Assembly: GCA_977020255.1 (NCBI GenBank)
Contig: CDROCS010003383.1
Span: 310,001 to 374,000 of the forward strand
Reading direction: 5' to 3'
DNA length: 64,000 bases
DNA from: Obrimoposthia wandeli
Taxonomy: Eukaryota
Positions 1,831 through 61,334 of the stretch are shown in pieces (positions within the stretch are counted from its first letter, which is position 1; the number at the start of each line of letters is the position of its first letter). A program made the position numbers and the translations under genes. The notes under the pieces are model-generated. The model was not told the DNA's origin and searched no databases. It saw nothing but the letters and a program-made list of their open reading frames with translations.

Positions 1831-2173
1831 TGTTACGAGAATAAAAAGTCAAGATAAAGAGATAGTTCGGTAATTTCGTAAGTTTTGTAAGCTGTGTGCG
1901 GTTTTCCTGATTTTACTATCAATATAACTACTTTATCACTGTTTAGCAAACTTTGTTTAACTTCTGTCTTTTTCATAAAACCTGATATTGTTTTGCACTT
2001 TTCAAATTGATCTTAAAAGTGATAACTTTACTCAGTTCAATTTAGAAATTGATAATTTCCATTCAGTTCAATTTAAATAAGGATAACTTCACTCAATTCA
2101 ATTGAAATATTGTTATAGAATTCACGTTGGGGGCCTCCATACGAGGATCTAGTTTCAAATAGAAACCTCAACA
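1831..2173. mobile_element. Solo LTR (343 bp), Gypsy-like
   Basis: Termini TGTTA...CAACA, flanked by 4-bp TSD TTAG (1827-1830 and 2174-2177). Contains three ~30-bp internal repeats (GATAACTT...CAGTTCAATT, about 2021-2110). Its last ~65 bp match the end of the LTR at 49100. Confidence 0.8.
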
Positions 2174-26825: not shown

Positions 26826-29520
26826 TGTGAGGTTGAATATATTGCGTTGTTTGATATGTTTGACGAGTATGTTTGTATGTCTGTAAATTATGTCTGTGTG
26901 TCTGTTATTTATATTTGTATTTCTTATGCTCACTCGAGAATGCTGCTACTCCTCATAGAATACTGTATAATCAAGGAATATTCTAGAAACAAAATGGACG
27001 TATTTGCTTTTGTTTTAATATTCTGTTTTTGTGAATATAATTTGAATTGATGTCTTTTAAATTTTATCGAGTAGTAAACCCATTACAATTCGACCTAGAA
27101 AACTGCCAGCCCATTTATTATCGAATATCCAGGAACATATTGAAGATATGGAAAATAATGGGATAATCAAGGAATGTGATTCACCATGAAATTCACCATT
27201 GGTTTGTATAAAGAAAAAAGATTCAATGATGTTAGGATGTCTGGATTTTAGAGCTTTAAACAAAGTCACAGAGAGACCCATATTCCCGAATCCAAATACT
27301 GATGAAATACCAGATAGTCTTAACGGTACAAACTATACTGTAGACTTAGGTAATGCATACTATCCAGTCGACAGTCGAATTAGACGAATGTTCTAAATTA
27401 AAGACAGCGGTTTCAACTTAAAATAAACAATATTGTTTTCAGAGAATGCCTTTTGGAATCGCAGCAGCAGCAGCAACCTTTCAAAAATTAATGAACAAAG
27501 TTTTGGGAGGTTTGAATTGGAAAATTGCCACGGTGTGTTTGGACGATATTCTTATTTTCTCTAATAATATAAATGAACACTATGAGAAGATTGAACATGT
27601 TTTCAAGAAAATTAGTGAATCAGGATTAAAAATAAGTCCAAAGAAATGTCATTTTTTGAAGAAAGAAGTAAATTTTTAGGCCACATAATAAATCAAAATA
27701 GAGTAAAGACGGATTGAGAAAAGATCAAAGTAAAATAAAAAATGTACGACTCCAAAATGTGTGTAAAAGCTTCGAAGCTTTTAGGACTCGCTAATTACGA
27801 CAGGAAATTCATTGAGGATTATTCAAAAAGTATTAGAGCTATCTAGCAGTAAGTCTTAAAACCTGTATGGAAAAATGAATGTGAAGAAAGTTTTCTAGCC
27901 TTAAGAGAAAAAATATGCCAAACCCCAGTATTACAATTTCCTGATTATAATAAGCATTTTATATTGGATACAGATGCCAGTTTCGACAGCTTTGGAGCAG
28001 TTTTGTTATAATTGGATGATAATGAAAGAGAACGGGTTATAGCTTATGGTTCACACACAATGTCAAAACATGAAATTGGGTATTGTTTTACTCGAAAATA
28101 ATTACTGGCAATATACTATTTTTGCAATCACTTTAAGCACTATTTATACGGAAAACAATTTGTATTGAGAACAGACCATAAAGTAATAACTTTCATGACC
28201 AAAACAAAAATAACGATAACACCTCAGTTTCAAACATGGATAAACTACCTCAGTAGCCTTGACATAGATCTTCAGTATCGGAAAGGTGAGATGCAATGTC
28301 AAGAAGTGAATGTCAAACTTGTTTACAATGTCAAATGATACACCTGGATCCAAAGTTAGGAAGACTAAAACTAGGATATTGTTTATCATGAAGGATAATA
28401 ATGGTTGAGATACCTTAAAAATACCTTGAGAACACTTTTCATATGAAAAATATGATGTCCAGAATTAAATACATTGTTCAGAGCTGTAAAGCATGTCAAT
28501 TGAGAAAAATATTCACCGGAAGAACAAAAGAAGAGATAAAAAAACCAATATTAGTAAATTAATATAGTACGTTTAAATCAATTTTATGGATTTTGTGGAC
28601 CATTCAGAACAACAGTACATGGAAAAAAATATATTGGCTATAATTAATCAAGAAAGTAAATATATTGTTCTAACAGCTGTCAAAACTCAGGATGAAAAGA
28701 CAGTTGTTAACAGTATGTATTAAAGAATCAATGGATTTTGAAATTCGGATCACCTATGGTTATTAACATAGATAGAGGTAAAGGTTTTGAAAGTAAACTA
28801 TTTAAGGACTTCGTACAACAAATAAATAGCACTATTAATTATCCATTAGTCCATATCACCACTCAGCAAATGGACAAATTGAGAGGCAATTTCGGACTAT
28901 AAGAGATGCTATTCAAGTATCTTTGAAAGATAAAAATCATAAAGATTGGAGAGAATTGTTACCGGACGTTGAGTTTATGTTAAACTGCTCTTACCAAACA
29001 ACTTTAGCAAAAACACCTGCGTAAATGGTATATTGGAAAAAAGGTATTTAAAGAATGGTTAGGGAAGAAATGGGATATTGCTATGCCAGTGACACATCAT
29101 AAATGCGAGTTGGGCGATTTAGTGCTAGTAAAGAGAGAATTGAATAATAAAGCAGAAGATAGGTATGAAGGTCTAGCGAAAGTAACAAAGAATATTCATG
29201 AAAGAAGTTATGTGCTGAAATGTGAGAATGGACGTAAGTAGGTAAGAAATGTAGAGTGGCTAAAGCCAAGGGAGGATGTGAGGTTGAATATATTGCGTTA
29301 TTTGATATGTTTGTATGGCTGTAAATTATGTCTATATGTCTGTTATTTATATTTGTATTTCTTATGCTCACTCGAGATTGCTGCTACTCCTCATTCTATA
29401 TACTGTATAATCAAGGAATATTCTAGAAACAAAATGGACGTTTTTGTTTTTGTTTTAATATTCTGTTTTTGTGAATATAATTTGAATTGATGACTTCTGA
29501 TGTTATAACTCGTTCCAACA
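26826..29520 (+). mobile_element. Internally deleted Ty3/Gypsy LTR retrotransposon
   Basis: TGTGAGG at 26826 and 29277 (two LTRs), end TTCCAACA at 29520, 5-bp TSD ACTAT on both sides, PPT AAGCCAAGGGAGGA before the 3' LTR. Order RT (LDFRALNKVT, MPFGI, CLDDILIF), RNase H (DTDAS, RTDHK), integrase. Frameshifted; gag and protease are missing. Confidence 0.93.
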
Positions 29521-30640: not shown

Positions 30641-30831
30641 GAAGATTTGCGGTGGATTCTGAGAGAGAAGTGTTGTTGTCTATTCTTCTGGCTGAAATAC
30701 AAGTCTGAGGACAACTATGGCGGGGCTGTGACAAACTGCAACAGCAGCATCACCGGAGCCAACAGTATCAAGATGAATCGATCGGGATCTGCCGAAGAAC
30801 TGGCTGAGAAAGCCAACAAGAAGAAACTGGG
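30641..30831 (+). CDS. GPCR coding exon 4 (helix 8, proximal C-tail)
   Basis: Acceptor aaacag|GAA in phase 0 continues ...NDSFQ-EDLRWILREKCCCLFF (helix 8 plus Cys cluster typical of palmitoylation sites). Phase-2 donor GG|gtatga at 30832. Confidence 0.85.
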
Positions 30832-31305
30832 GTATGACTCAACTGTTACGTGTGAAAATCTTTATATACCTCAATTTTTATTATTTTATTATTATAGGGA
30901 CGGAACTTTATAAAACGTTTTAAACCACTTAGGACATCTAGTTAATTAGAATGTGCACTTAAAAGTGTACTTGTTGTAAAAATAATTATTTTAGTTATTT
31001 CAGGCTTTGTTGTTTTTGAGCTATTTGGGACCAATTTAGCTCTGGCAACGTTTTGTGTTTCATTGGGCCCGGTTGGTTTCGATTCATTGGAGATCCTATT
31101 TTATGGATTTAAATATTGACTACCGATCGATGCAAATTTGAATTCAAGATCTTACTTTTTTGATGAAAAAATTGCATTTTCTCACTAAAGGAATTTCTCG
31201 AGCATGTAAATGCATCTTAAGACCAACGATACTGACTGTAGATTGTTTAGGAAATTCTCAAATAACATATCGAGTGATGGAATATTTTAATTGTATGCTC
31301 TAAAT

Positions 31306-31870: not shown

Positions 31871-34800
31871 TGTAACTGTTTTTGAGTTTTATATATGTAA
31901 TTAACAAGAGAAAAACTGTTTTTACAACTGATAAAATTATTTAATTATCAATAATATTGCAACAAATTGTTTGAGAGACTACATGATAATGTTGAATAGG
32001 TTGAATTTTTTCTTTGAAAATTTAAATTTTGTATTTCGCTTTTATCACAAATTGATGCAGCTAGGCTGCTAATTAATTATCGATCTCAAGTCGATAATAA
32101 TTATTATATTAGAATTATATGATTTTATTTATTAAATAAAACATAGTACTTATATCGGCGAACACACATGGGGACACTAACAGGTAATTTCTGCCCTAAA
32201 AACGAAGTTTGTGAATGTGTTTTTGACTCGAGTATTGTGTTTCTGTTTTTTTTGGTGTTTATGATGATTTTGAGATTTCTGTTGATTAGTATTGAGTGTT
32301 GTATGGTTTGTGTTTTATCGTAAGACACGTTATATGAACCTTCATATTTTGGTTCTAATGAAAAACGGTTGCCTCTTTTTATGGCTTTCTTTTATGCAGC
32401 GATACAATCTGTCTGTCTTTCCGTTTGATTGTGGGTTGCCTGTTGTAGTAGTAATGAGTTTTATGTTTTTATTGTGCATAAACCAAAGAAAGTTTGGCTT
32501 ATAATTTGTCTTCCTTGGTCAGTATCTTTTATTGAGGTGAATCTATTTGTTCTGAACCACTTTTTGTAAAATGTGTTCCAAGTGTATTTATATGTTGTGT
32601 TTTTATTAGTAATGCAGAAAACAAGCTTATTTGTTATCTATTATGGTTAGGGGGTGTACGAATTTTTCGTTAGTAATGGTCTGAAGATGTATACGTGATT
32701 TATGTGGAAGGCTTCGCTGTTTATGCTGAGTGGGGTTGTTTTGTTCGTGTAACATTGTACGGAGTTGTACGAATTATTCTATGTAAAGGTTTTGTAAATA
32801 TTATTCTGATTAAACTGGGTGTTATGTTTTCGTGCTGGATGTCAGTGATTTGTATAAGTCGTAACTTGTCGTGTGTGATTTCGGATATGCTTTGTTTGAA
32901 TTTGGTTTATATATCTTCGAAATTGTTTTATGTTGAGTTGTTTTTGACTTGTGGTATGCGAGAGTGTATCCGCGATTATGTTGACGTTTCCTGGGATGTA
33001 TTTTATTTCGTAAGTGGATTGTGAAATGTAATTGAGATTTCCAAGCGTTGGTTTTTCATGCCATTCATGTGTAGTAGTGGTTTGTAGTTTGTGTATATTG
33101 TGAAAGGTTTATCGGTGAGAAAATTTTCGTAGGGTTTGATGGCTTGATGTATTGCTAAACGTTCTCGGTCAAAAGTAAAATATTTTATTTGATGTGCTTT
33201 TAGTTTTCGTGAGAAAAAAGCTACTGGGTTCGACTTGATTTAATGTTGCTACTATGACATGGTTTGATGGGTCGGTTCTACGTGTTCGTCAGGATTAGAA
33301 TAGTTAACGTTGTGGCTTTGAATATTGCTTCCGTTGCTCCTTCAAATTGTTTGATGTCCTGGACGGATATTTTTATCTTTACTGTAATCGTGTAGCGTGC
33401 TAATATGAACGCGCAGTTGTGAATGTGTTTGTGGTAGAAATTGATCATGTCTAAGAACTGTTTCATTTCTCTTATATTTGTTGGTGTTGGAAAGTTTTGG
33501 TTGCTTGTGTCTTTTCGAAATTTGGTTTTATTCCATTTTGTGAGATTGAGTCCAAAGGAAGTGATTTCGTGTTCGGAGAAGTGGCATATTTCTTTGCTTA
33601 TGATTAGGTTATTAGTGAATATTGTTTTGTACAGCTTGTAAGTCTTCTGTGTGTTGTTCTGTTGTGGGGCTTGTGATTATTATGCCATATATATAAGTGG
33701 TTGTGTTTAGTGCATCGTGAATTATTTTTTCCATGAATCGTATGAATGCTGCTGCTGAGTTTTATTGTAACTAAAATGCACCTTAATGTATTCGAACATT
33801 CTGAATGGGGTAGTTAAGACGGTTTTGGGTATGTTCTGTGATTTTAGTGGTATGTGGTGATATGCAGATTTAAGATAATTTTTCAAACATATTCTGATGT
33901 TGTGTATGAGTGGTATTGGGTATTTTGGCAGTTTTCTAATTGTCTGGTGGTAATTGTCTGACTTTTGAATATGTGGGTCTACCGTTTGCAATGATTTTGT
34001 GTGTGATTTCGTTTGGTTTCTCATGTTGTCGTGAGGTTAATGTATGGGTTGTGTTGATGGTTTGATATGTGGATTTTTGTCTTGTCATTTGAGTTGTTTG
34101 TATGGTGTTCTGTGTGCTATTTGTGTAAATTGTACTTTTGTTTAAGTAGGTTGAGTCTTTTGTGTTTGTGTCGATTTTTTTGTGGTTTGTAGTTTTGATT
34201 TTTTGTCAAAGTTTTGCTTCTGCAATCGACAACTACATTGAAATATGCTAAACAATTACTTCGAGGATCGGTTTTGGTATGTCTGCTATGATGAATTCCT
34301 ATTTTGAAATGTCGTTGTCTAGTTGTATGCTTATCTTGGTTGAAATGCAAGTTTTATGGGGGGTTGGTTTGTCCGTGTTTGTGTGTGAATGTAGGTGTGA
34401 TATTTCAGGGAGTTGTGGAAACTGTGACTCAGTGTCTATGAGGAAATTTAAATTATTTATGTTTGAATGTGCCGTGAATATGGGGTTGCAATCAACGATA
34501 ATTGGTACGCTTAACGTTGATGTCGCTAGTTTTTTGTTGGTGTAATTAGATGGAATGGTCTATTTGATTTCTTGGTTTCCGTAGGTGTTGTGGTGATAAC
34601 ATGTATTTGAATTGTTTGTGGAGTTGGGGAATTGAAGCGTGGTCTGTTGCTGTGTCTGTGTGATGAGGGGGGTCTATATATTTATGGTGTAGAGTTGAGT
34701 GTTGGTTTGTGTAATATTTTATGAAAATTTATCCACTTTTTAATTATTTATGTAATTATTTTATTTTATTATAATTATTTTCAAATCGTGTATGACTGAA

Positions 34801-35866
34801 TCAGTGTTGTTTAGTGTATCGTGTCGTATGTGTACTGTTGAAGTGTGGTGTGTTGATCATAAGAATGCAATTTATCGGATGTTGTGGCTAATTATTCTAA
34901 TGGGTAATGTTGTATTGTTGTGATTTTTAGTTTGAAATATATTTCCCGTAGAATTGAATGTTGTATGTCGTGTGTGATGTTTGGCTGGATGAGTTGTAAT
35001 TATTTTCTCTAAAGCATTTAAGTGTTGACTCGGTTTTTTGAGGAGTCGTAAGTTGTATTGAACAAGGTTTTCATAATCTCACTTTTGTTTATTGTGTAAT
35101 TCTCTTTATAATATGTTTTATGTGTTGTGGTGGTGTGTGTGCTTGTTGATTTCTGTGATTTTATCCGTGATTTCGTCTAGGATGTTCGCAGGTAGTGTTG
35201 TGTGATTTCTTGAGTATGTGTTTGGCATTGCGGATGCCAGAGATGTTGATGGTGGTCTTCGTTAAAGAACATTGTGGTGTGTTGGCTTGTTGGTGTGACA
35301 TTGACTTCTTGTCATTATATGTGTACTTTATGTTTGTGCTTGTGTTCTGAAAATGTCCTAAAATGTTATCGCCAATTTGATGTTAGAATTAAAGTAGTCA
35401 AAATTGATAAAATACTTTTTTTAATAACTACAAGTGAAAATACAAAAAAATTAGCGGGCTGAGAAGTTGATGAGTCAAATCTGTTGAATCCTGTTAATGT
35501 TAATTGTGTTGTTGATAGAGTTGGTTTTGATGTCGTGTATTCTTTCTTCTGACATCAATGTTCTGGGGTTTTATGGATATAACTGTCAAAAGAGAAATAA
35601 TTTATACAACTGTCTAAAATATTTAATTATCCAAAGTATTGGAACAAATTGTTTGTGAAATCACAGGATAATGTTGAATGGATTGTTGTTTTTTTATTTT
35701 CACAATTTCTATATGCTGTTATCACCAATTATCTAGACTGCTAATTGATCATTGGCATACCGTCGATAAGAATTAATATATAGAATTAATGGATTTGAAT
35801 TTTTATTATCACATATTACTTATATCGGCCAATACACAACAGTTACACATTTAGGGGCTCTAAATA
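31871..35866 (-). mobile_element. Old Ty3/Gypsy retrotransposon, antisense in GPCR intron 4, G-depleted on its sense strand
   Basis: Two diverged direct repeats (~31871-32200 and ~35559-35866; outer ends approximate). PBS-like TTGATGTCAGAAG immediately after the LTR CA at 35559 (tRNA-Leu-type TGGTGTCAGAAG). RT remnants (YPIPLIH, LKSAYHHIP, IPKT..TTPF), FLDMINFY, RNase H (PVAFFSRKL, TFDRE.LAI, FTIYTNYKPL), NIIADTLS. Confidence 0.85.
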
Positions 35867-36661: not shown

Positions 36662-37676
36662 TGCCTGGTATGGATAAAAAGTATCGATACTCGACATAAA
36701 TTAAAGTGTTATAACAATAACATTTTATGTTTATAAATACATTATAGGTTAGGTTTATTTTTCAATATAACCGCCTTCCTCCAGTACACACTTTTTCCAC
36801 CGTTCAACTAGCATTTCAAAGGACCTTTTCTTTTAGTTCATCTTTAGAAGTAAACTTCTTTCCTCTTAAATCCTTTTTAAGATGACTATAAAGCCAAAAA
36901 TGGCTTGGGGCTAGGTCTGGACTATAATGAGGATGATCCAATTGCAGAAAACCCGTTTGTGCTACGGTTGTCCGTGTTTTTGCTGCACTATGGAGCATTA
37001 TCGTGTAACAAAAACATTGTCTGACCCCTAGAATTTCTACGAAGGGATCTGGTTTCTTTTACTAATGAAGAACAATATTCGGAATCTATAAATCCTGCAG
37101 TATAATCACTTTTAATCACTATGTTATATTCCCAAAATAATGTTAACAAATTTACAGCCTAGTTTACGTATTAATAATTGTTGTAACATATTCTGTACTG
37201 TTTTCTTACAAACATTTAGTCGCATTGAAAGTTATCTTTGCGTTAGTTTCCTTTCATTTTTAACAAGTTTAGTTAACATTTCTAATTTGTCTTCATTTTC
37301 ATGAAGCCTTCCACTTTTAACTTCATCAAAAACATTCTCTCTCTCCGATAAAAACTCATTAATCCATTTATATATGTTAGCACGATTCATTGCTACTTTC
37401 CCGTACACTTCTTGAATTTCTTTAACTATTTCATGTCTTTCCATGTTCTTCAAAATTAAATATTTAATAACGCTTCTTATTTCAACAGTTTCATACATTT
37501 TCTATAAAATTGTTATAATATTAATATTCAAATACTTTATTCAATAAAATTAATTAAAGTAAGGCCTAGTCATTATGATTAATAAATATATTTAAACAAA
37601 ACTTTATTTTAATTCAAACATAGAAATTTTAATTCATATGATATCGAGACTTGGTGCTTTTTATTCACACTAGTAT
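36662..37676 (-). mobile_element. Mariner transposon remnant with internal deletion
   Basis: ORF 37232-37498 is a mariner N-terminal HTH (EIRSVIKYL...VYG..AM...IYKWINEF...DEVKSGR). ORF 36816-36998 has HPHYSPDLAPSHFWLY (YSPDLAPSD with Asp lost). Degenerate TIRs at both ends. Confidence 0.8.
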
Positions 37677-40570: not shown

Positions 40571-42092
40571 ATCTTTGCTATAGTCAAATTTTAATATAAG
40601 ATTCGGCGTTGGCGGGGTAAAGAAATAAATTGAAATTGAGATATTGATGTATTTTCGTCGAAGCTATTTCGAACGGTTCGGTTATCAAACTGCGAATTTA
40701 ATCTAAATCTGCAATTTCAGACTTAATTTGAAACCGGTGATTGATTTTGAAGCTCTACAAGCTCTGAGCAATTAAATATTTAATTGTTTATTTTTATAAT
40801 TCAAATAAATCATTTGTCCGTAATTAATTGTTACTGGAAATTCAAATTAGACAGTTACCATACTATTGGGATTGTCTTTCACACATTTGAACCTGGAACC
40901 GGCTGTAAATATGTTGATTTAAAATTCTGGAATAATTAAAACAATAAAATATGCATAATGGTGTATTTTTGTATATAGTCTGTTTCAAGACTTTATTATC
41001 AGACATATTTTAAAAAATGTCAAAGAAAATAATCTTAATAAATAAACCAATTTTATTTTATAATCTTTTCTTATTTAAAAGTTTACTCACTGCAATTTGT
41101 TTAATTTTAATTTGTTCTTATTTCATTAAATTAGTGTTTCGAAATTTTTCAGTCATTTTACGGAATTTGCTTTCAGAGAGACTTTCGATTATTAGAAAAG
41201 ATCCTCTACATGAAACACCTACTTTGTTTATTAATAAATGTTGTTAACCGTTATTGTTATATTTTGTTTGTCTGATTCTAAAATTCTGAAACTAAATAAA
41301 TTTTAAAACATCTATACATGAATTATAATAACGATTTTTAGAAATATGGTTAACAAGACGACGATCTGCAGCGTCTTAAAATACTGCACATTATTACGAC
41401 GTCATGAGTAAGAATAGAAACCCATATAAAACATTTCGAAAATTGTTGTAAACTCTTCACCGTTGGAATATCGATATCCGTCTAAAAATTGTCGTATTCT
41501 CTCGTAATGTCTCTTGGAGTTCAGTAGTGCTAGACTAACTTAAATGATATGTAATATAAAATTAATTTATCTCTAGTAGTATTATTTACAAATGTATTTA
41601 TATATTGATTATATAATAACAGATAATAGAATTTAAACTTTTCGTTTCATAATAAATGTTCCCAGCAAAAACCTAAATATAAATGTAGAAATATGTTAAA
41701 TAAATACCAAATATTTGTCATCTCCAGCAAGATAACACAAGGTCACACGTTGCTCAAACACAACGTGTAACTCGTTTGAACCCCACATTGAAAAAGATTG
41801 GTCTCTGTGTCACGGCCTTGCAAACGGTAGTCCTACTGTTGATTAGGCGTGGCCGAAACCCTCCATAAATAATTGTTTAATGTGTGCTTACGAACGACGT
41901 ACACATTGTGTGGCAGATTATAGAAGTCATAATTTCAAGATTTCACAATTATACAAATTTACAATTTAAATTTGAAAAAAATATAAATTGAATTTTATAA
42001 AATGGCGAATCCTATCAATTTCGAACAAGAATTATTGTGAATTATAGATCGTGAAAAATAAATTCTACAGCTGTTGAGTATTTGGATTCCAT

Positions 42093-43430
42093 TGTTAGGT
42101 TTAGGAATTGATAAAAATAAAATAATTAATCGAATTTATAGTGAAATAAGAATCCTTGAAAGCAAGGTTATAAATTAAATAAAATTGAATATTAGAATTA
42201 AATTATTAAAATTAAAAGGTAAATTGAATATTAAGGACCACGAAGGTCGTGTGTAGTGCACTGTATATATAGGAGGTTAAATTATTATTAAGGGCCCCAA
42301 AAAACAAGAATCAATTTAGAAAAACGAAAATCTAATTAAGAAGATTATTGCGAAAAGTTTATTAAGTAAAAGGACGAAGAAGAAAATCAAATTAGTCGTA
42401 CATTAGAAACCCATTAGCAGTCTGGGAGCCACGACAACAGAAACCCATTAGCAGTCTGGGAGCCACGACAACTCGAGCAAAGAAACACTCACCTCATCTC
42501 CGAGAATCACAGCAGCAAGAGGCAACAGATCCATTAGCATCAGCAGACGGAATCCAGCCACGAAGGTAGGAGCACTTAGCTTAAGTGCAAGTGATTAATT
42601 GATTTTAGGAAAACTACGTGGCCGAGGGACATATAAAAACGAGCGACGCTTTCAAAGCACACACAAAAATTTCAAACGAACTATCGGAAAATTCACAGAA
42701 CGCGGAGCGGAATCAAGGAGACAAGGTAAAATCAACTGACTGTCAAATTATCTCTAACAAAGCTTACAGAGGACGAGAAGATTCGATAATCGCGCATCGG
42801 ATCGAGCTAGCATCGGACTAACCAGTACCACGCCAAATTCCGAAAAAGGGACCATCACTTGTCGGACTACAAAGGAGCTAGACTTATTCGGAGAGAGGTA
42901 AGAAGAGAACCGGAAAATTGCTGAAGAGATTTAAAGCGTTTTGTGAGCCAGTTGAAAAGAATTTTAAGTCAAAGTAAAATTATATTCAAGTAAAATTATA
43001 TTGAATTTTTAAAGCGTTTTGTGAGCAAGTTGAAAAGAATTTTAAGTCAAAGTAAAATTATATTCAAGTAAAATTATATTGAATTTTTAAAGCGTTTTTG
43101 TGAGCAAGTTGAAAAGAATTTTAAGTCAAAGTAAAATTATATTCAAGTAAAATTATATTGAATTTTTAAAGTGTTTTTGTGAGCAAGTTGAAAAGAATTT
43201 TAAAGTCAAAGTAAAATTATATTCAAGTAAAATTATATTGAATTTTAAAGAAAATTAAAGTGAACTCAACTCGCATTACAGTACATTTATATTGAAATAA
43301 AAGTAAACCGGGTGAAATTGGATAAAGTAGATTCGAAATCGAATAAAGCTAAAATTGACATCGTAAGTTTTGATTGAAAGACTCTTCTTTATGCGCTCTT
43401 CTTTAAGGTTGATCCGAAGAGCGCATAACA
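42093..43430 (+). mobile_element. Long solo-LTR-like element A (~1.34 kb), related to element B at 47313
   Basis: Starts TGTTAGGTTTAGGA like B and shares TTGAAAGCAAGGTTA, GGACC...AGGTC, AGGGCCC(C)AAAAA and GCACTTA..TAAGTGCAAGT with it. Probable end GCGCATAACA (TGTTA...TAACA). No matching TSD found, so the right end is uncertain. Confidence 0.7.
42930..43250. repeat. Tandem array, 4 x 78-79 bp, inside element A
   Basis: AAAGCG/AAAGTG unit starts at 42933, 43011, 43089 and 43168. A separate 2 x 34 bp repeat lies at 42405-42472. Confidence 0.95.
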
Positions 43431-44094
43431 TATCCAAAGTACTTAGAGTCATAATGATGAAATGATTTTAAAACTAAAGTGTTTCGATTATATAAAAACC
43501 TAACTTCAATATAATTGGTCAACAAATCAAAATAATCCTATATAATAAATAAATTGATTAAACACAAAAGTTGTATTAATATATACAAGTGAATAAATGA
43601 AAAACAACCATAACACAACTATATATCTTATTGTCCAACGAAAAAAAAATACAAAAATATTTTTTACAACTTTATATTTTGTAGTTGACGTTTTAAGATG
43701 AGAAGTCTAACTTCTCAATTTCGATTTTCAACTCTTTAATATCTGCCTGATTCTGTAATTATCCAATTTATAATTTTTGAGTTCTTAATCTCAAATTTTC
43801 AGCTTTTGATACAAAAGATTCCATTCTATCATTCTAAAAGTTCATAGATTAAAAGCTATATTGTGAAATACAGTATGTCATAATATGTTTGTTTGTTTGC
43901 TATTATTTTCATGTCTTTGGAAATAACAACTTTAGTTAAAAGTGTAAAAGTTTTAAAAAAAATTTTTTAGAAAAAATTTGTAAAATTCTGATGAATCTAA
44001 ATGATCAAATTATAAGTTTAAATATTTTATATTTTATATTTCTAAATAAATATCAGATTCTAAAAAATGTAAGAAATTTTATTGAAATTAATAT

Positions 44095-44463
44095 TTATAA
44101 TCTATATATATATTTAGAAATAAGTCGTTTAAATTCATAAAATATATTAAGAAACTGATGATACGACCATAAAAGACATAAAGGATCATAATTAGTAGTT
44201 AGTGGGTTTTGCATACGAGATTTATTATAGAATACATGACGTCTCCCTTGAGTTTCCACATGTCTGATGAGCGCTGATGGATAATAAATTCCTATATGAT
44301 CAAATACGTGTACACTATCCCGTCTTACAAATAGCGCAATCCAGTGTTCACCAGGTAAATTACTCGTATGAGTATTTACAACATATCGCCCAGGTTTTAG
44401 AGTCGGTATTTTATCCATAGGAAACACTCCTTTGAATTTCTGATTCAATAATTCAATTCCCAC
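44095..44463 (-). pseudogene. Adenain-like cysteine protease (Polinton PRO), catalytic Cys apparently lost
   Basis: YVVNTHTSNLPGEHWIALF (GxHW), VFD, QNPLTTNYDPLCLLW. The expected CG dyad reads YD (TAT GAT). Confidence 0.85.
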
Positions 44464-44525
44464 AGTATTAACCTGTTTAGAACTACATTAATTATTATTA
44501 TTATTAAGATCAATAAACACTTACT

Positions 44526-45746
44526 TCATCCAACAATTGCATATTTGCCTTTAGTTACTTGAATTTCAGTATCGAAAACACCGTAAATTATAATGTTTGA
44601 CGGCTGTGCCAATCCTTTGAGAAACTTTACTTCAAGTCTTAGATTACCCTGTCTCGGTAATTGATGTTGATTTATATCAAAGTCAGGGGCCAATACGAAT
44701 GTAAAAAATGAGTAACGTTCCTTAAAATCTTCAGATGTTATACCTATGTTGATATTCTTATCCAATAATCCCATGTTTCTAACCAGTGATTGAATATACG
44801 CAAACATGTATTCATCTTTTTCAAAGTTTGTAGTGTACGTTTCAACAAAATCAGTGTTTCTACTAAGGGAAATTGAACCGACATTACAATGATCAAATTC
44901 TGAAGTGTCTGTTTCACTAAACCCGTCCATTTTAAGATTATGTTGAAATGTAACCAAAACAAATTTAGGTAATTGCTCATCATCAAAAATAGGTGATTTA
45001 TAAAATGTAGTAGAGCCTTTAGGTAGTGAATAATGTGCCACTTTTCCCCGTCTATATGGATAAACCGCATTTTGAGTTTTCAAACCAACATTATGAGCCA
45101 TCAAAACTGATGGTTCAACTCGTACACCTTCTAACTTTAATTTTAGCATCTAAACATTTTATTCTACAATGAGTTGTACCTGTTTTTAGTGACATGTTTG
45201 CATTGGAAATAATCAATTTTATACCGACATTCATACCGGGAAGCAGATATTTAGGTTTTTCAAGAAAATCCGATCGAATTGAACCGCACAACTCAAATTA
45301 ACTAGATTTTTCAATCCACCCTTTCACCAATTCCATCTAATGAAACACTTTTCGTATATTTGCTATAATTAAGCATATATTCAATCAAAGCCTTGTGAGC
45401 ATAATTACCATTTCCTCCTTCAATACGAGTATTATTCAGGTGAATTTGCACATCTTTAAATAGTGTATGGAAAAAGAAATTTGTTGGTATAAATTTATCT
45501 GCTTCCCCCATATCAATATAACTGTTTGTTCCATTATTTTTTAAAAACTTTAAGTTTCAAATATAATAGAGAATCATTCAAATCTAAATATTCTGTTTCA
45601 CTCGAATGGATATTAAACTCGATTGTATTAATATTACTACCGGTAATATTATTAACCGGGTAAATATTCTCAAAACATCCATTTTCTATAGCAATTTGTG
45701 GTAGTGGACGATCAAATAAACACAGTTCAGATTTTGCACATGCCAT
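44526..45746 (-). pseudogene. Polinton major capsid (hexon-like) gene, frameshifted
   Basis: Fragments CAKSELCLF...IEFNI...YLDLNDSLLYLKL (45534-45746), PTNFFFHTLFKDVQIHLNN...YAHKALIEYMLNY (45311-45511), LCGSIRSDF, and ORF 44526-45149 ending GNLRLEVKF...IIIYGVFDTEIQV match the Polinton MCP pattern. Confidence 0.85.
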
Positions 45747-45749
45747 TTC

Positions 45750-46133
45750 TTACTCAAATATGGTTCCTATTTTTCTACGTTTGTTTATACTACCACTACC
45801 TTTCTGTACTTCTTCTTTCATTTCAACTGGAATTTGTACAGGTCGTTTTCGACTTTTCTTTATTTCAGTCATTAGTTGAGTAACAGCTTTTGTTGCTTCA
45901 GGCAACAAACCTGGTACTTCACTCATTGCATTTGATTTTAGTTCACTCAAAATTGGTTTATCGTTCATTACTACATTTGTAAGTGTTTTTGCACCAATTC
46001 GTCCTAAATGTGATAGTATAGGAAACGCAATTCGCCCCAAACCTGTCAACCAACCTGAACCATATTGTTTTCCAACAAAGTAAGGTAGTTCACCACCCAT
46101 TTGGGTTGTACTATACACATCAAATAGAGACAT
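45750..46133 (-). CDS. Small Polinton core/membrane-interaction protein candidate (QxGxG plus amphipathic helix, basic C-terminus), intact ORF
   Basis: QMGGELPYFVGKQYGSGWLTGLGRIAFPILSHLG, located between penton and hexon where this small gene usually sits. Function is inferred. Confidence 0.65.
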   Translation of the reverse strand: MSLFDVYSTTQMGGELPYFVGKQYGSGWLTGLGRIAFPILSHLGRIGAKTLTNVVMNDKPILSELKSNAMSEVPGLLPEATKAVTQLMTEIKKSRKRPVQIPVEMKEEVQKGSGSINKRRKIGTIFE

Positions 46134-46152
46134 TATTAGCGATTAACATTGT

Positions 46153-47294
46153 TTAATTTTGTTTATACATAACTTTTTGGAAATGTAGTGTTAAACTAGT
46201 TTTTGCATTATGAGCAAAGTTTATCGGTATTCCACTATCATTACGAATATTTACTGCAATATTGGAAATAGATGTTGATATTACAGCAAGATACATTGGT
46301 CTAATGATTGCAATATTTGCGTTGTCACCATATTTTTTTATCCAACCAAATTGATTTTAACAATGGTATTGTTACACCACCAACATTTATAGACTCTATC
46401 AAATTGGTATACAGGTACATGTGATCAAACTCACATATTAATTGAGGAATACCTTTACCGTCACCTGTAAATTCTGTTTTATTAAGACCCAGTACAAATG
46501 CCATACGATTATTAAACATTATACATGAAATATTATATTTTAACTTGAATTTAATGAATTTATCTGTTTAAATATGAAACATGCTAAAAAATGATTACAT
46601 TTAGATATAACGTATTTAACTAATGCATTCAAATCTGTACTATTGAAATCGTTGTCAAACAGGATTTTTGAATTTATATATTTCTCTCTTAATTGATAAT
46701 ATTCAAATTTTGTTGATACATATTTATGATTTATGGTTTTTTGCGCATTTAAATAACATTATCATCAAATGCTAAGTAATTTTCAGGGTTTAATTGATTA
46801 TTTAGGAAACCCAATTTATTTTTCGATTTTTTAGATAGTTTTATATAGAATTTCTGTTTATTTACAGATTTTATAACAAGTACATTTTCCATTTTATCTT
46901 CGCCATATGTACCAAACTCACAATAAAGATTAGCAATGCGTTTTGATGATTTTAATTCTACTTTTGAAATTTTCTTTATAATAAATTTAACAGCTTTATG
47001 CTTATCATTATGATTTTCCTGAACTTTAAATTCAACATTTAATGAGACAGTGTCGGTTTTCTTAGCACTAACCGTTTCCTTATAATTAATTTCACCACCC
47101 TTGTGTAAAATAACGGGTGTATTACTATAAGTAAATTCTGTCAATGCAACTTCCCATTCACCTTGAAGTTCTATCGGATTTTCCCAATCAACAATAAATT
47201 TCGATGCGGTATTATCAAGTTGAGTGTTTGGACAACTATTAAATGGTAGCACAATATAGAAAATTTTTACTCTATCTGGTTCGCTTTTATCCAT
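46153..47294 (-). pseudogene. Polinton minor capsid (penton) gene, disrupted
   Basis: N-terminus FYIVLPFNS..NT.S.F......PIELQGEWEVALTEFTY. C-terminal pieces HMYLYTNLIESINVGGVTIPLLK and RNDSGIPINF...SLTLHF; stop at 46153-46155. Confidence 0.85.
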
Positions 47295-47312
47295 GTTGGT
47301 GTTTTATACCCA

Positions 47313-49100
47313 TGTTAGGTTTAGGATTTTATAATTATTTATACATTAAAATAAATCTTTGAAAGCAAGGTTAAATATAAAATAAAATTTTAAATAGAAT
47401 TAAAAAACTAAAATAATAAAATAAAACTGGAAAATAATTAGGACCTTGAAAGGTCATGTTTGGTGTGCTATATGTAAGAATAATTTAGGGCCCAAAAAGA
47501 CTGAGTGTGATTAAGAATAAATAAAGAGTCGTTAAGAAGAAACTGAGTGTAAGAAGAGAGTAATTAAGAAGAAACTTCGAGAAACCGAACGCTGAGAAGC
47601 AGCCAGACCAGCCAGTCCATTAGTGCAGTCAGAAGACACTGCGAACTCGCCAGCCGGTATCCAGGTAGCGAGGTAGGTGCACTTAAGCTAAGTGCAAGTT
47701 TATTCAATTTTGCAGATACAGGAGACACGAATTTGGAGGAGCCGCTGGAACTAAGCCAGTCGTCCAGTCTCACGGTAAGCAGCCATTAACTTAAGTGCAA
47801 TTTAAATTATAATTTGTTAAGGAAAAATTCTAATCTATTATCCATATAATACACGGAAACCGAAATTACAAGCACAACAAATTGTCTGTCTCAAAAAAGA
47901 AAATAAATCGAGTACTGAAATAAAAGTGGTACAGAGTTAATCTAAAAAACAATCGGATACGACTGAATCAAGATTCTAGCCGATTCCAGAATAGTGCCTA
48001 CAACAGAAGAAGGTGAGTTAAACAAATAAAGAGCAAACTATTAAATTGCCACATTTAGTCGAATCTCGGAAAGCTTGGTAGAGCTCAGATCAGTGCAAAC
48101 TATAGCACCTGGAAACGAGGAGGTCAGCAACTTGGCATAACCAAATCGGAGGAAGGAAACAGATTTTCCTCGACTAACCATGACGAAGCGGAGGAGCTCA
48201 AGGACCTTTGGGAACGCGTCAGGACGACAGAGCGTTAGCAGATAGATCAGCGACGAATCTTGGAACGATCGGAATCATCGGTGAGAAGAGTGTGAGCGAT
48301 GCTGATTATTCCCCATTTTTAAAGCGAAATAATTTGGGAAAAGTCTTGAATTGAAGACATATAACTTGTTGTATTAAAGCGTAATAAATTGGGAAAAGTC
48401 TTGAATTGAAGATATATAAATTGTTGTATTTAAAGCGTAATAACTGAGAAAGAAACATTTTTGACTCGTATCTTGAAGAGTAGTTGAGAAAAAAGGAAGT
48501 TGATTTTTCCACATTTTAACGTTGAGTAAAACGTATTTGAATTTGAACAAGTCCCACTGGACACAAAACTCATAAAATTGTTAAGGACCTGGTTAAAATA
48601 AACCAAACTAACTGCCCATATTTTTAGAGCCACCAGCTCTCTAAAATCAACCCATAATTTTAGAGTAAAGACTCTATTGAATAAAACCACTAAAAAATTT
48701 AAATCGATACGTGGATCATCCCCACTTGTGTAGAGACTTTGTGAAAAGTAACTAGGATTAGTTTTGTTGTTTTTAGAACGTGTTAGAACATAATTTCGTG
48801 TCTTAGAAATAAAGATTTCCTACATTAGGCAGTGTTATATTGAACAAAACCCTTGCAAGCAAGTAAGTGTCAACTACTCCATATACAACACCACACTAAG
48901 GGAATTTTGCAGTACCTGTATACACAGCTCTTCACACATTTCGCAACACCTAGACATAATAAACCTTCAGATAGAAATTGAGATAGACACGCACAACTTA
49001 AGTAGGCCACAAACAACTACAAGTCCTGTTTCTATAGAACTCACGTTGGGGCCCTCCATCAGAGGATCTATCTAAGAAGTTTCATATAGAAACCCCAACA
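47313..49100 (+). mobile_element. Solo LTR B (1788 bp) inserted in the Polinton
   Basis: TGTTAG...CCAACA with 4-bp TSD CCCA (47309-47312, 49101-49104). The empty site ATACCCATGCCAC is visible in the duplicate copy at ~49468. Internal ~57-bp repeats at ~48320-48440. Confidence 0.92.
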
Positions 49101-49217
49101 CCCATACCACTTTACGTAATATTGTTTATTCTTACCTCGACATTTAGATTTAATGAATTCTTGTATCCTATATACTTTTGGTTTATCAATAACTTGTAAT
49201 TCTTGCTCATAAAACTT

Positions 49218-49586
49218 GAGACAGTATCGGTTTTCTTAGCACTAGCCGATTTCTTATAATTTATTTCACCACCCTCGTGTAAAAAAACGGGTGTATTACT
49301 ATAAGTAAATTATGTCAATGCAACTTCCCATTCACCTTGAAGTTATATCAGATTTTCCCAATCAACAATAAATTTCGATGCGGTATTATCAGGTTGAGTG
49401 TTTGGACAACTATTAGATGGTAATTTTTTACTTTATCTGGTTGTCTTTTATCCATGTTGGTGTTTCATACCCATGCCACTTTACGTAATATTGTTTATTC
49501 TTACCTCAACCTTTAGATTTAAGGAATTCTTGTATCCTATATACTTTTGGTTTATCAATAACTTGTAATTCTTGCTCATAAAACTT
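49218..49586. repeat. Second copy of a 382-bp tandem duplication spanning the integrase 3' end and penton 5' end
   Basis: Copy 1 = 47044-47312 + 49105-49217 (382 bp, split by LTR B). Copy 2 = 369 bp, lacking the 13-mer GCACAATATAGAA. Confidence 0.92.
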
Positions 49587-50365
49587 TCCCTCTATCGGAC
49601 TTTTATCATCATCTATGATGTTATACATTACGGGATTTGACCGTAAATTGATTTTGGCTATTTCAAATACTTCATCACTCCAATTATTATCGAAATTTTT
49701 AATAAAAGGTGTTGTACTTAGTCGTGATATGCGAATAAAATCTCGAACTTTGTATTTGGGTTTCTTTATTATTGATTTTTTAATTACGAGAAAACCAATC
49801 ATCAAATGAAATATCAATAGGTTTTTTACAACCTAAACCGCGATGTGGTGAGTGATTATATGAAATTAACAGTTTAGGTAGTACCTTTACCCATTTCTTT
49901 GATCCAATTACAACAAAATGTTTCTTTAATTTATCTCTTAATGTCCTATTAAATCGTTCAACCAAGACCGCTTTAAAGTGTGAAAACACAGAGTAATGAT
50001 TTACTCATAATTTATCAAAAGTTGCTTTAACATGTTTGTTATAAAACTCTTTTCCAGTATCTGTTTGTACATTATCGGGAACAACATCAATCATATTTTT
50101 GATTGCAGCATCTATATCTTTACCGGATTTTGATTTTACTGGTTCAGCACGCCCAAATCTGGTAAATACATCAATACATGTTAATATTTATTTGTAACCG
50201 CTATTTATACTCGCATAATGTATCATTTCCATCAAATATATTTGCCATAAATTATTAGGGCCACTAGTCTTGTACGATCGTGTCGGAAACCTTTTTCGCA
50301 TCGGTTTGTTGAGACTGTACGCCAGTTGATTGATCAGCCATGCTTGAGTTTTCTTTTGGCTCGAC
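49428..50365 (-). pseudogene. Polinton retroviral-type (rve) integrase with C-terminal chromodomain-like tail, disrupted
   Basis: AWL.NQLAYSLNKPMRKRFP, WQIYL (WQxDL), IDVFT, VQTDTGKEF, VERFNRTL, YNHSPH, KVRDFIRISR, IEGKFYEQELQ, QYYVKWHGY...TWI; contains stops and frameshifts. Confidence 0.9.
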
Positions 50366-51439
50366 TTGGTGTTTGATGATAGAGTTCCAACTGTGAGAAT
50401 TTCAACTTTTTCGAAATATTTCCCCTTTGTCCCAGTTTATGTTGTCTCACAAAAATAGTTACAAATATTCAAATGAATAAAGCGCTTTGAGAAAACTGAA
50501 ACTACAGCTATAATGTTAAATGTTAATAATTATATAGTTTAATTAAATTTTAGAAAAATAATAATTTTTGTTTCACCTTGTTTAGTAAAATTTAATTACC
50601 TAACTCAAACAAATTTTTAACCTCAAGTCAGTAAATAGGTTTACAGAAAGCATGACATTATTAAATTTACTTAAATATATTTATGGACTGTTTATGTAGT
50701 CACTATATGATACAATATATGTTAATATATAGATAAAATAATAACTTATGATCCTTGTATAAGATGAATCCCTATAATTTTATTTTTTAAAGTACGAGTC
50801 TTATACGGTATGGAAAATATCTGCCGGCCAGTCAGCATTTTTGACAGACATTTTGACCAGCTGTAAATTCTTTAAATTTGCAGCTTATAAAACATAATTA
50901 TAAAATATTGTGATCGTTCTTCAGACAGATTCTTTGGAACTATCTATTAAATAATATGACAAATCTTAAAATAATATCGAAATGGCAACAGATTTTTTAA
51001 CTAGTTAAATAAACATAAATGACAAGTATGAAGTGAAATATGAAATTTAAATTAAAACTGATTACCATTTGAAATTTGGACAAAATCTTCAAAGAGCAAT
51101 TGTCAGACAACTGGACATGTAAACAGGATGATATTCTGACAGACAAATTATGCGCGCATGACATACACTTCTTGTACTATTGAGTTTAGTTCTATAATTA
51201 GTATATGTGAAATAAAGCGGACAACGTGGCTAAACTGCATTTTTCAAGAAGTTAATAATACATTGTACTGTTAGTTATGATAAAATTTTCAAGAGTTCAT
51301 AATGCATGTTTACAAAACTTTATATCATGCAGGTTGTAGAAAAGTATGAATAAATTTCTCATAGATTTGACTTCGTTGAAAAATGAAAATTCATCAAAAA
51401 TATAGTTAAATTTGGGAAAATTGTCAGAAACGAAAAGTA

Positions 51440-58120: not shown

Positions 58121-59835
58121 AAATAAAAAAATAAGAAATCGCTACAAACATGTATTAGTCATATTGATGATAACACACTCCAGCGCATATTTTACTGTGT
58201 AAGATTTTAGAGTTGATTCTGAGTAATTTTGACATGATAAATCAAGATAAAATTCGTTGTAATCCACCAGGTATAGTTTTTTGCACAATGACTTTTTATT
58301 GTTTCTATCCTTTTGTATATTATAACATAAACAGCGTGTAAAGAACATATTCGACAATAAATACAAGAAAAACGACAAAGCCTGAACTTTACCATCACGA
58401 TTGTAAAGAAAGTAAAATGCCCACCATCATATTTCTGTCCCATTAGCCTAACTGAAATAAATCGTAATTACAAGAAAGCTTTAGTTTTATCAATTCAATA
58501 ACTGAAATAGAAGCATCTTTTTGACAAAATGTTGTCTCGGTTGTGAATAAATTCTTATTATAAAGAATTTGTGAATGATATACAATAAAAATTTAAACAA
58601 CTCGATGCATATGAGCATAAAGCTACTGTAAAAATATGTAAATATTTTAAATTATAATTAAAATAATAAAGCCCACAAACTTATGGTATACCGCCAATCT
58701 ACATAAAAAGGGAAATTTCATATATGTTTATCAATGTTAGAAAGACTTTGTTTAAACTTATCAAAAACTTATGTTGTTGTGGTAAAAACAATTCAAATTT
58801 AAACAAGTTTGAATTTAGGTGTATCGATTTTATGGATAAATATTTATTTATAGAACGACGTTTTTTCGTAATATTCAATATTATATTAAATTATAGGTAT
58901 CATGGGATGGAACGAAAAATTATGGCTAATTACTGCTGAAGTTCCAAATATACAAGAAAGTCAAACAAAAGAAGATTTCTTCTGACGATTACATATTTAA
59001 GTTTATAGTTGCGTATTTAAGCCATGTGGTGCAAACATTTATGAAACTTATATGTTTATAAATTATTTGTTACTAGTAAATTTTCATTTTAATTATTCAA
59101 ACATTTTGATAATTTTGATTAAGGTAGGGTCACGCTAACTATAGTTAAACAACAACAAAAACTGAACCTGGTGCAGAAAACTGATATTAACTTTGGATAC
59201 AGCATATACAAGTTTAATATTTGAGACACCGGAAGAGGACTTTTTGGTCAGCGCAATGATTATGAAAACAATCACAAAAGAAAAGAACACTATTTGCATG
59301 TAAGCTTAATGTTTTGATAACTGACTTAGACGAAGACGTACTTATTGGCCTAATTAGATGGTCTATAGAAATTAAACGATGTAATTAGGCATCAGGCAAC
59401 ATTTTTCTATATTCACCCAGCTGTTGCTGAACCCAGGTACATAGGAAAAGTGTATTAGGTAATGGCATTTACTAACTTAAGCATCAATTCTGCAATTCAT
59501 TCCGATTAAAATAAATGAAATAGTAATTGTTGATGACAGATTTATAAAGAATGTAAAGAAAAGAAACTTATTACTTTTTGTCATTTGAAAGTAGGAGATA
59601 TTGGAGTGTTTAAAAAGTAAACTGATTCGGATCACAGATGTATGGTGATGTACACAAAGTGGTACAAAAAAAACAGTAGGAAAGATTAGCTCCTGAGTGA
59701 TATCGTTGACCACACATTGAGAAGACGTGAGCCGTTTGATTGCCAAAAATGTGTTTAATTCTAGTTTAAGTTTTATTAATCTGTGGTTGACGATACTTCC
59801 CCTGAAAATGGCACCAGCTTATCATGTGGTCTCAC

Positions 59836-60018
59836 CCGAGGGATAATTGGCACAGACGGTCGCATCACCGGATCAGGACTGAGGCAAGCGTCATCTCGAG
59901 ATTGAGATCTCTTCATCATCAGAAATGGCTCCTTGTCGTCAAATGAGTAGTACCTCTCTGTGATGCGGAGGGGACAGTGAGCAAGCGTTCTGGTGATCTC
60001 TACAAGCGTCTCAGTGTA
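59836..60018 (-). CDS. Minus-strand gene, predicted exon (phase 0-0)
   Basis: Acceptor tcttccag|TAC and donor CGG|gtgaga; 183-nt open GC-rich exon YTETLVEITRTLAHCPLRITERYYSFDDKEPFLMMKRSQSRDDACLSPDPVMRPSVPIIPR. Confidence 0.65.
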
Positions 60019-60456
60019 CTGGAAGACAATATTTTTAAACTTGATCCCCTTAAAACATCAAAAGCCAATACACATAGTCCACTTTATTCATAACAATAAA
60101 ACTTTTATTCATATCACATACGTATGAGCCGGCAGAATCTAACATTGAAATCGATTTACCGATCCTTCGATAACTTTTTTTTCAAAAACACTTTATATAC
60201 CTTTAAATTCAAACTTTTAAAAATTACATTAACAACTTTCATCAAGGTAATTTTTTTTAAACAACCTCGTATCTGGCATTTCTCAAATCGACTTTTTTTG
60301 TAAACTTTCAAAGGCTTTTTCAGTCATTTCTCTGGAAACATAATTTATTTCATGTGTTATATGTTGCTTTACAAAGCATTGCAATAGAATAATAGTCCAG
60401 CAGAGTTAAATCCGCGTTTCGTTACAATGAGATACGTTCTGATATATTTTACTTAC

Positions 60457-60554: not shown

Positions 60555-60726
60555 CTTGAATATTATAGCGTAGTTGCACTTCTAATCTTTTTGTAGGAAA
60601 AAAAGAAAATCTCACAAATGCCTTGTTATATGTAAAAAAATAGAAACAAAATAAAAAGCTTAAAACTGAATTGACGATTATTTAGTTCATGGTTATGACC
60701 CGCATTGATTGCACAATGGGACTCAC

Positions 60727-60774
60727 TTTTGAGAGCGATCTGCTTGTTGAAGCCGCGCTTGCTGTTGAGTACAG
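60727..60774 (-). CDS. Minus-strand gene, predicted exon (48 nt, phase 1-1)
   Basis: Acceptor cgtttag|CT and donor AAA A|gtgagt; encodes VLNSKRGFNKQIALK; preceded by a 55-nt intron. Confidence 0.6.
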
Positions 60775-60829
60775 CTAAACGATCAGAAGGGTGATTGAAT
60801 AGATTGCAAGCGTGAAGAAGTAAACTCAC

Positions 60830-60971
60830 GCAAAAACATCGGGTAGGAATTCTCAGCTGCGTAGTGGATTGGCAGATGGCCTGAGTAATCCATCAATTCG
60901 TGGTTGGCGTCTGCAACAGGTCCATCAATCTCTCTCAGACAACCGGATTCTAATGGCGACTTTGCGCGGCG
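60830..60971 (-). CDS. Minus-strand gene, predicted exon with an ankyrin-like motif
   Basis: Acceptor tgacag|CGC and donor TTG C|gtgagt; RRAKSPLESGCLREIDGPVADANHELMDYSGHLPIHYAAENSYPMFL. DxSGHLPIHYAA resembles the ankyrin D..G.TPLH.AA pattern. Confidence 0.6.
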
Positions 60972-61334
60972 CTGTCAGGCTCAAGTGCGCAATTTACACG
61001 CTCCATGAGAAACGTGATTTCGTAACTAACTATCTCAAGTTACAAAGAATTTTTTTTTTAACTTCATATAAAGAAATTTACTTGGATAGAACAAAACGTT
61101 TTGATAATTACATTACATTTTTCTTAGAAATGTAAAAATTTATACTTTTATACTTTAAATATACATTATCAATCTTGGAAAATTCGTTTCAAATTGGACA
61201 GTTATTTAAATAAAAACATTCATTTGAATTTAGAATTAATGGTTGTAAAATGTAAAATGAAATGAAATGATGAGTAAATATGTGAAATGCAGCAGTAGAT
61301 TATAGGAAAACAGTTGGTCTTATTTTTTATTTCA

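Follow-up and report, generated by a model that had tools for sequence, protein, structure and literature searches.

Long terminal repeats (LTRs) are expected to lose introns because of their passage through RNA, and the question raised by a 64-kb stretch of DNA from Obrimoposthia wandeli (contig CDROCS010003383.1, positions 310,001 to 374,000; this whole 64,000-nt stretch is the window, and all coordinates are positions in it) is why two LTR-like units within it, elements A and B, should each hold a series of short segments running from GT to AG. A and B, probably solo LTRs, would belong to two diverged families within one clade of LTR retrotransposons, and each likely has, downstream of a TATA-like box, a leader of 1.1-1.6 kb with four (A) or five (B) predicted spliceosomal introns of minimal size. 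We consider it fairly probable that this repeat-unique 5' (R-U5) part is the long, multiply spliced and AUG-free 5' leader of the element's messenger RNA (mRNA). The case rests on strong sequence signals from two independent tests.

A, B and a shorter element C are the three relatives of this type in the window, and all of them start with TGTTA and finish with AACA. A and B share 73% identity across 143 nt near the 5' end (BLASTN, E 2e-15), and the final 60 nt of C are 79% like the end of B. The copy data, which concern B only and not A, come from contigs of four runs of one sample, aligned on B and its flanks (46900-49200); the figures from this comparison cover 40 of 350 differences, 12 of 67 indels and 15 of 112 joints. 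B is flanked by a 4-bp target-site duplication (TSD), CCCA, at 47309-47312 and 49101-49104, and because contigs of all four runs contain empty-site joints that skip 1792 nt (1788+4) at B, it is a true insertion; since the flanks are covered as well, the contigs of these runs behave as DNA. Between 7190 and 10941 contigs per run align on B and its flanks, with every bin covered and many contigs at 82-99% identity, and B belongs to a dispersed multicopy family, the summed contig depth on B not being a copy number. Depth is far higher at the ends of B and in its AATAAA bin than in the intron-bearing middle, a contrast that suggests many subfamilies with common ends. We take the 4-bp TSD to be only suggestive of the Ty3/Gypsy superfamily. 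A pseudo-LTR of the Penelope kind was rejected, B being one unit, bounded by TG..CA ends and a 4-bp TSD, that has neither an adjoining open reading frame (ORF) nor a tandem copy. A pattern drawn from the 3' end matched four loci, all GC-rich (0.56-0.66) and matching over 19-20 nt only, which were rejected as chance, and the intron-1 pattern had no match in metagenome and viral contigs.

Element C contains no ATG and may be an internally deleted or a naturally short LTR. Its AATAAA at 1840 is followed by a donor, C|GTAAGTTTTG, that is identical to the donor of A4 but has no AG at 38-52 nt. The 5' boundary of C is set by the TSD alone, and the window holds 30 such pairs of ends and TSD. C also carries an array of three 30-nt units (2015-2107).

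Nine intron-like segments, all of 39-50 nt, are found in A and B (Table 1). Seven of these were named in the original prediction, and each is present with the position, ends and length given for it there; their AT content is 59-74%. That prediction placed the segments between a TATA-like box and a poly(A) signal, which holds for the seven; the total is nine, however, and the two newly found segments, A4 and B5, both with a T-rich acceptor, lie past the AATAAA motifs that it quoted (43296 and 48680). A4 is 3' of both of the 3' AATAAA motifs of A, with 23 nt left to the end of the element and no poly(A) signal after it in A, and B5 is downstream of AATAAA 48680 and 48808 and upstream of AATAAA 48958. 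GT and AG bound all nine segments, six of which begin with GTRAG, the other three having AG|GTA; a loose candidate branch-like motif, [CT]T[AG]A[CTA], occurs in six of the nine. T content is 0.31 in eight segments and 0.17 in seven exon blocks (p=2e-6). In none of the nine does the tail of the segment repeat the end of the upstream exon (common suffix 0-2 nt; best case equalled by 88 of 300 shuffles). A mirtron or a known structured RNA was rejected, as no fold among the seven segments folded had a z below -0.7 and Rfam gave no matches at E up to 1. The 79-nt array units of A hold GTGAG at 42943, 43021, 43100 and 43179 on the plus strand, with AG 48-49 nt further; if used, these would give up to four extra introns in A, separated by very short exons, and their donor context is weak (T at -1).

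Table 1. Positions in the window of elements A, B and C and of the features described in the text
Feature	Position	Strand	Remarks
Element A	42093..43430	+	LTR-like, 1338 nt, TG..CA ends, no clean TSD
Element B	47313..49100	+	probable solo LTR, 1788 nt, TG..CA ends
Element C	1831..2173	+	short relative of A and B, 343 nt, TG..CA ends, 4-bp TSD TTAG
TATA-like box of A	42264..42272	+	TATATATAG at 42264; aligned with B; putative start site near 42295
TATA-like box of B	47467..47474	+	GCTATATG at 47467; putative start site near 47500
Inverted repeat	47442..47455	.	upstream of TATA-like box of B; candidate DNA factor site
Putative leader (R-U5) of A	42295..43430	+	ATG-depleted; within longest ATG-free run of the window, 42003-43390, 1389 nt
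Putative leader (R-U5) of B	47500..49100	+	ATG-depleted; 2 ATGs, 48180 and 48299
A1	42566..42608	+	43 nt, with 17-nt near-palindrome 42572-42588
A2	42726..42769	+	44 nt, weak donor GTAAAA, CTAAC branch-like motif
A3	42898..42936	+	39 nt
A4	43363..43407	+	45 nt, newly found; GTAAGT..pyrimidine tract..AAG
B1	47673..47715	+	43 nt, with 19-nt near-palindrome 47678-47696
B2	47775..47821	+	47 nt, paralogue of B1, palindrome broken
B3	48013..48058	+	46 nt, donor AAG|GTGAGT, top donor score in set
B4	48281..48324	+	44 nt, CTGAT branch-like motif; contains one of the two downstream ATGs of B
B5	48863..48912	+	50 nt, newly found; GTAAGT..AATTTTGCAG, final 10 nt as in B1
Tandem array of A	42930..43250	+	79 nt x 4.1; begins at A3 acceptor TTTAAAG|CG
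Tandem array of B	48318..48443	+	55 nt x 2.3; begins at B4 acceptor TTTAAAG|CG
AATAAA of A	43342..43347	+	aligns with B 48680 in weak local alignment; second copy 43296
AATAAA of B	48680..48685	+	in one of the two deepest contig bins (48671-48747)

Does this pairing of GT with AG exceed what chance would provide? With a generic donor matrix, whose frequencies were not trained on these sites, 2210 nt yield 4-5 segments of 39-48 nt, whereas the remainder of the window would predict 0.25-1.07 (Poisson p 1e-4 to 5e-3); at the three thresholds, 0, 2 and 7 of 500 dinucleotide shuffles do as well. Under a regular-expression rule, with the array of A collapsed to one unit, 10 of 17 donors are paired with an acceptor 38-52 nt on, compared with 42 of 343 elsewhere (p=2e-5, an optimistic value, because the bin was picked after the sites were seen, the neighbouring bins serving as the control). 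No excess is found at those other lengths, with 2 of 17 donors paired at 23-37 nt, 2 of 17 at 53-67 nt and 3 of 16 at 68-82 nt, and on the minus strand of the elements two single rules pair 1 of 4 and 0 of 4 donors. The acceptors of A2 and B3 do not satisfy the regular-expression rule, and some of the 10 paired donors are alternative donors of B1 or one inside the array of A. The p-values thus overstate the case, the bin being post hoc and the segments not all independent, whereas the specificity for length and strand is real.

The relationship between A and B adds to this picture. Alignment of the segments gives z 6.7 for A1-B1, 4.3 for A1-B2, 4.3 for B1-B2 and 2.8 for A3-B4 (1 of 300 shuffles), the last agreeing with the homology that had been proposed for this weaker pair. 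The first exon block is alignable between A and B (z 4.6), and none of the remaining 19 exon pairs exceeds z 1.6. Segment length has been kept despite divergence, as had been claimed, and the reading of the segments as introns gains support from their length-specific pairing, from the T contrast and from the alignment of homologous introns where internal exons do not align. B2 is a paralogue of B1, the extra intron of B having arisen by duplication, and the tandem arrays of A and B both begin at the homologous A3/B4 acceptor. The central loop of the near-palindrome is inverted between A1 and B1; of five perfect stems in the window with at least 7 bp, a loop of 0-4 and at least 3 G-C pairs, two are in A1 and B1. 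The first exon block of A also holds an exact 34-nt duplication (42405-42472).

Loss of AUG on one strand is the expected product of selection on a scanned 5' leader, and an upstream AUG in a spliced leader would also risk decay of the RNA. Only 3 ATGs stand on the plus strand downstream of the TATA-like boxes, against an expectation of 30.2 (z -6.8, array collapsed), and ATG is the most depleted of the 64 triplets there, with CAT normal (36 vs 32.7) and CTG, GTG and TTG not depleted. A and B occupy the lowest 2 of 116 tiles for ATG, and they contain the window's three longest stretches free of ATG (1389, 854 and 708 nt), the next being 379 nt; the longest on the minus strand is 436 nt. Depletion extends past the conserved AATAAA region of B, where 48701-49100 has no ATG and 4.5 are expected (2 of 500 shuffles). 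The sole ATG of A downstream of its TATA-like box, at 43391, is inside A4, and two of the three residual ATGs of A and B sit inside segments; the last ATGs upstream of the leader of B are at 47456 and 47472. Family contigs are non-ATG at both 48180 and 48299 in all depth shown, one run being without cover at the second site, and among the 30 listed family differences in 47500-49100 two abolish the two ATGs of B and none makes one, the chance of 30 such differences striking both being 0.003-0.006. Because the family differences remove both, the two ATGs look like decay of this copy of B. Spliced A has no ATG, and no splice junction generates one, which excludes an AUG-started peptide from A. 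Coding was rejected more generally, the longest stop-free frame being 122 codons, spliced or unspliced.

The TATA-like boxes and the AATAAA motifs at 43296 and 48680 to which the original prediction had pointed are present, and TATA-like box, putative poly(A) motif and element end stand in a sequence that would suit the order unique 3' (U3)-R-U5, but AATAAA is repeated 4 times in A and 14 times in B. The pairing of 43296 with 48680 as single signals did not stand, since several AATAAA are present and it is 43342 that aligns, weakly, with 48680. GGGCCC lies after each TATA-like box and again near the 3' end of B. The inverted repeat of B was taken from a bacterial-type scan, and a related motif is found in A at about 42236-42249; both, just upstream of the TATA-like boxes, are everted AGGTCA-like half sites of the nuclear-receptor type.

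A mechanism can be proposed in which transcription would start about 30 nt past the TATA-like box and, in a full element, RNA from the 5' LTR would read through the poly(A) signal. Removal of the short introns may label the RNA as host-like mRNA to be exported and translated, and ribosomes would pass along the AUG-free leader by scanning until they meet the start of gag, past the end of the LTR. Spliced RNA would be translated and unspliced RNA copied by reverse transcription; the introns would persist because the unspliced RNA is the template and because intron-losing copies are poorly expressed, as proposed for Penelope. Given its position 3' of both AATAAA motifs, A4 could be removed only from read-through RNA, and it lies in the part of the LTR that is copied only from the 5' end of the RNA; should it prove to be an intron, reverse transcription must therefore act on unspliced 5' ends. 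The weakest step, and a doubtful one, concerns the palindrome of intron 1, a candidate dimerisation or packaging signal that would be carried by unspliced RNA only. Likewise tentative is the full proposal in which the AUG-free LTR leader mimics a host transcript, the intron-1 palindrome marks unspliced RNA and splicing in R sorts mRNA from genome and allows the introns to outlast reverse transcription, and even to duplicate through it. In favour of splicing counts the G protein-coupled receptor (GPCR) gene of the host, with similarly loose splice signals and no pyrimidine tract.

Of the two ideas offered in the original prediction, the one favoured here has the element's own RNA as the target of splicing. 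The other was a self-contained, spliced and polyadenylated unit for a long non-coding RNA (lncRNA) or a small-peptide RNA, and it fits less well than a spliced leader. We regard as unlikely an LTR-contained, polyadenylated non-coding RNA with real introns, in which loss of ATG avoids decay of that RNA. Such an RNA would agree with the sequence of TATA-like box, introns and AATAAA inside each unit, with AATAAA 48958 downstream of all five introns of B, and with maize, in which 59.6% of 5'-LTR-contained and 69.2% of 3'-LTR-contained reads are spliced (PMC13192763; this and the other sources cited here are drawn on for their accessible parts), although such RNAs would be expected from solo and 3' LTRs with a spliced leader too. 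It is at odds with the place of A4 past the last AATAAA of A, 23 nt from the end, with the avoidance of ATG continuing through B 48701-49100 (0 vs 4.5), and with exons that are not conserved between A and B, which leaves no sign of a conserved RNA product. Quite unlikely, in our view, is that the segments are never spliced and are instead DNA or RNA signals in an unspliced AUG-free leader, such as factor sites, donors that bind U1 and hold back early polyadenylation, or a dimer palindrome, the GT..AG spacing being part chance and part duplication. With B1 and B2 one duplicated unit, and A1/B1/B2 and A3/B4 homologous, the segments may go back to only some five independent origins; conservation is best in the palindrome and TTTAAAGCG, not in a branch point, which as a loose motif is missing from three of the nine segments, and the donor of A4 is 15 nt after AATAAA 43342. 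What speaks for introns over such signals is the restriction of pairing to 38-52 nt and to the plus strand, the lengths of 39-50 nt retained despite sequence divergence, the T contrast (p=2e-6), and the location of two of the three residual ATGs within segments.

Reverse transcription itself could be dispensed with if A and B were non-autonomous DNA transposons, presumably of the Ginger type, that carry a captured spliced leader, and the puzzle of intron retention would then vanish, because DNA transposition needs no reverse transcription. Ginger elements have TGT..ACA ends, 4-bp TSDs and terminal inverted repeats of 40-270 nt. The TGTT..AACA ends and 4-bp TSDs seen here suit this possibility, as do the absence from view of a parent with a primer-binding site (PBS) or polypurine tract (PPT) and the resemblance of C to an internally deleted short form. 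The inverted repeats at the termini are merely about 4-10 nt, however, and no arms of 40-270 nt are among the 25 longest of 47 inverted pairs; the two ends differ, the order runs from promoter to poly(A) to end, and an AUG-free leader that reaches the last base requires a downstream ORF outside the unit. We consider this explanation very improbable.

Several points weigh against a spliced leader in an LTR. That A and B are LTRs, and that they are spliced, are both inferred from sequence. The flanks of A, CCAT and TATC, differ and give no clean TSD, and the window showed neither a parent with a PBS, PPT or gag nor a coding region that goes with A, B or C. The GPCR gene of the window has only multi-kb introns, no short host intron being found in the window, and introns in the 3' copy of R, coming after the stop codon of pol, could set off decay, a point that the model leaves unexplained. 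A2-B3 (z -0.8) and A4-B5 (z 0.2) are collinear but not alignable, and the true poly(A) signal of B may be AATAAA 48958, which would put B5 upstream of it. The palindrome hairpin is not beyond shuffles (z -0.70 and -0.54), a stable dimer was rejected because the self-duplex is equalled by 43 and 40 of 300 shuffles, and the palindrome is not intact in B2. The absence of ATG from the 200 nt upstream of the TATA-like box of A as well (0 vs 4.5; 1 of 500 shuffles) is not accounted for by a leader start at 42295, and the start may be further 5'. None of the 15 of 112 joints listed for B skips an intron precisely, and none of the 30 listed differences in 47500-49100 changes a GT or AG, which with 0.4 expected is uninformative on conservation; one listed difference retains a pyrimidine at the acceptor of B3.

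The window as a whole is AT-rich animal DNA. Its GPCR gene is a rhodopsin-family (7tm_1), neuropeptide-type gene on the plus strand, with exons at about 4333-4770, 14771-15217, 23669-23875 and 30641-30850 that are GC-rich in AT-rich DNA, acceptors without a pyrimidine tract and donors that are loose after GT; searches with it returned no named relative, the best match having 57% identity. GC-richer exon-like blocks of a second host gene are found at 59776-60057 and about 60700-61000 (minus strand). B is inserted in a decayed element at 44095-50436 (minus strand), multicopy by contig depth and with further ORF pieces, and A is at its left side; we call it Polinton-like on the basis of two ORF leads, a double-jelly-roll capsid-like ORF (44526-45149, minus strand; feature score 0.98, recognition below threshold) and a protease-like ORF (44095-44487, minus strand; weak match, E 0.62). 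Local duplications pair 47043-47248 with 49217-49422 and 49100-49217 with 49469-49586. Neither of two decayed Gypsy-like elements, which carry terminal direct repeats and lie at 26826-29496 (plus strand) and about 31877-35860 (minus strand; strongly A/C-skewed), is similar to A or B by BLASTN. The window also holds a mariner transposase remnant (36816-37501, minus strand; HTH_48) and tandem repeats of 38 nt x 7 at 63685-64000 and of 187 nt x 2 at 521-888.

If A and B are what we propose, four to five introns have been retained past the loss of exon similarity, which would place splicing of the LTR under selection for the element. They would also become a test case for retroelements that pass as host genes by means of introns, and for the sorting of mRNA from packaged genome. 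Nine exact junction predictions follow from the nine segments, and strand-specific depletion of ATG offers a simple means to orient long LTRs and to locate the leader.

With regard to known systems, intron lengths in a flatworm have modes near 32 and 58 nt (PMC4040987), and introns of 39-50 nt are thus possible in some animals. The accessible part of the description of Burro mentions no LTR introns (PMC6431247). The literature covered, in which Repbase and most subscription papers do not figure, has no account of an animal LTR whose AUG-free leader contains serial mini-introns. Spliced mRNA and unspliced genomic RNA coexist, with the unspliced form packaged, in Cer1 of C. elegans (PMC10309623) and in Ogre, EVADE and BARE1 (PMC12786077); in these elements the introns are in the internal region and alter the protein made, whereas the segments described here are inside the LTR-like unit and generate no AUG or ORF. 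The HTLV-1 LTR has a donor within the LTR sequence of the 5' leader, plus an acceptor in a vector segment, which amounts to one donor in a retrovirus and no series of minimal introns (bioRxiv 10.1101/2023.01.28.526022). Ty1 dimerises via 5' palindromes (PMC7969010), and a weak analogy would have the intron-1 palindrome select unspliced RNA. A closer parallel is Penelope of Drosophila virilis, a retroelement whose short leader intron has persisted with its donor and acceptor conserved, a retention that is explained by a loss of protein: removal of this 75-nt intron abolished the reporter protein, with RNA still present (PMC2377424). Penelope, however, is not an LTR element, and has pseudo-LTRs from tandem insertion and a single intron, in contrast to the TG..CA ends, 4-bp TSD and serial mini-introns found here. 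The architecture was unrecognised when first noted, and for animal LTRs that still applies within the literature covered, but introns within LTRs are reported from maize LTR retrotransposons, in which they are canonical, often two per transcript, and average 1303 nt; the transcripts, supported by long reads, are read as lncRNA, and the accessible part of the preprint, in which the authors present theirs as the first evidence for introns inside LTRs themselves and raise the question of other eukaryotes, does not mention avoidance of AUG (Gooden et al. 2026 preprint, PMC13192763). Compared with maize, the present case is known from sequence only and comes from an animal, with four to five segments of 39-50 nt per unit in an AUG-free leader, one of the segments past the poly(A) signal, and, if correct, it would carry the finding made in maize over to animals and assign it a function, that of a spliced AUG-free leader and not of an lncRNA.

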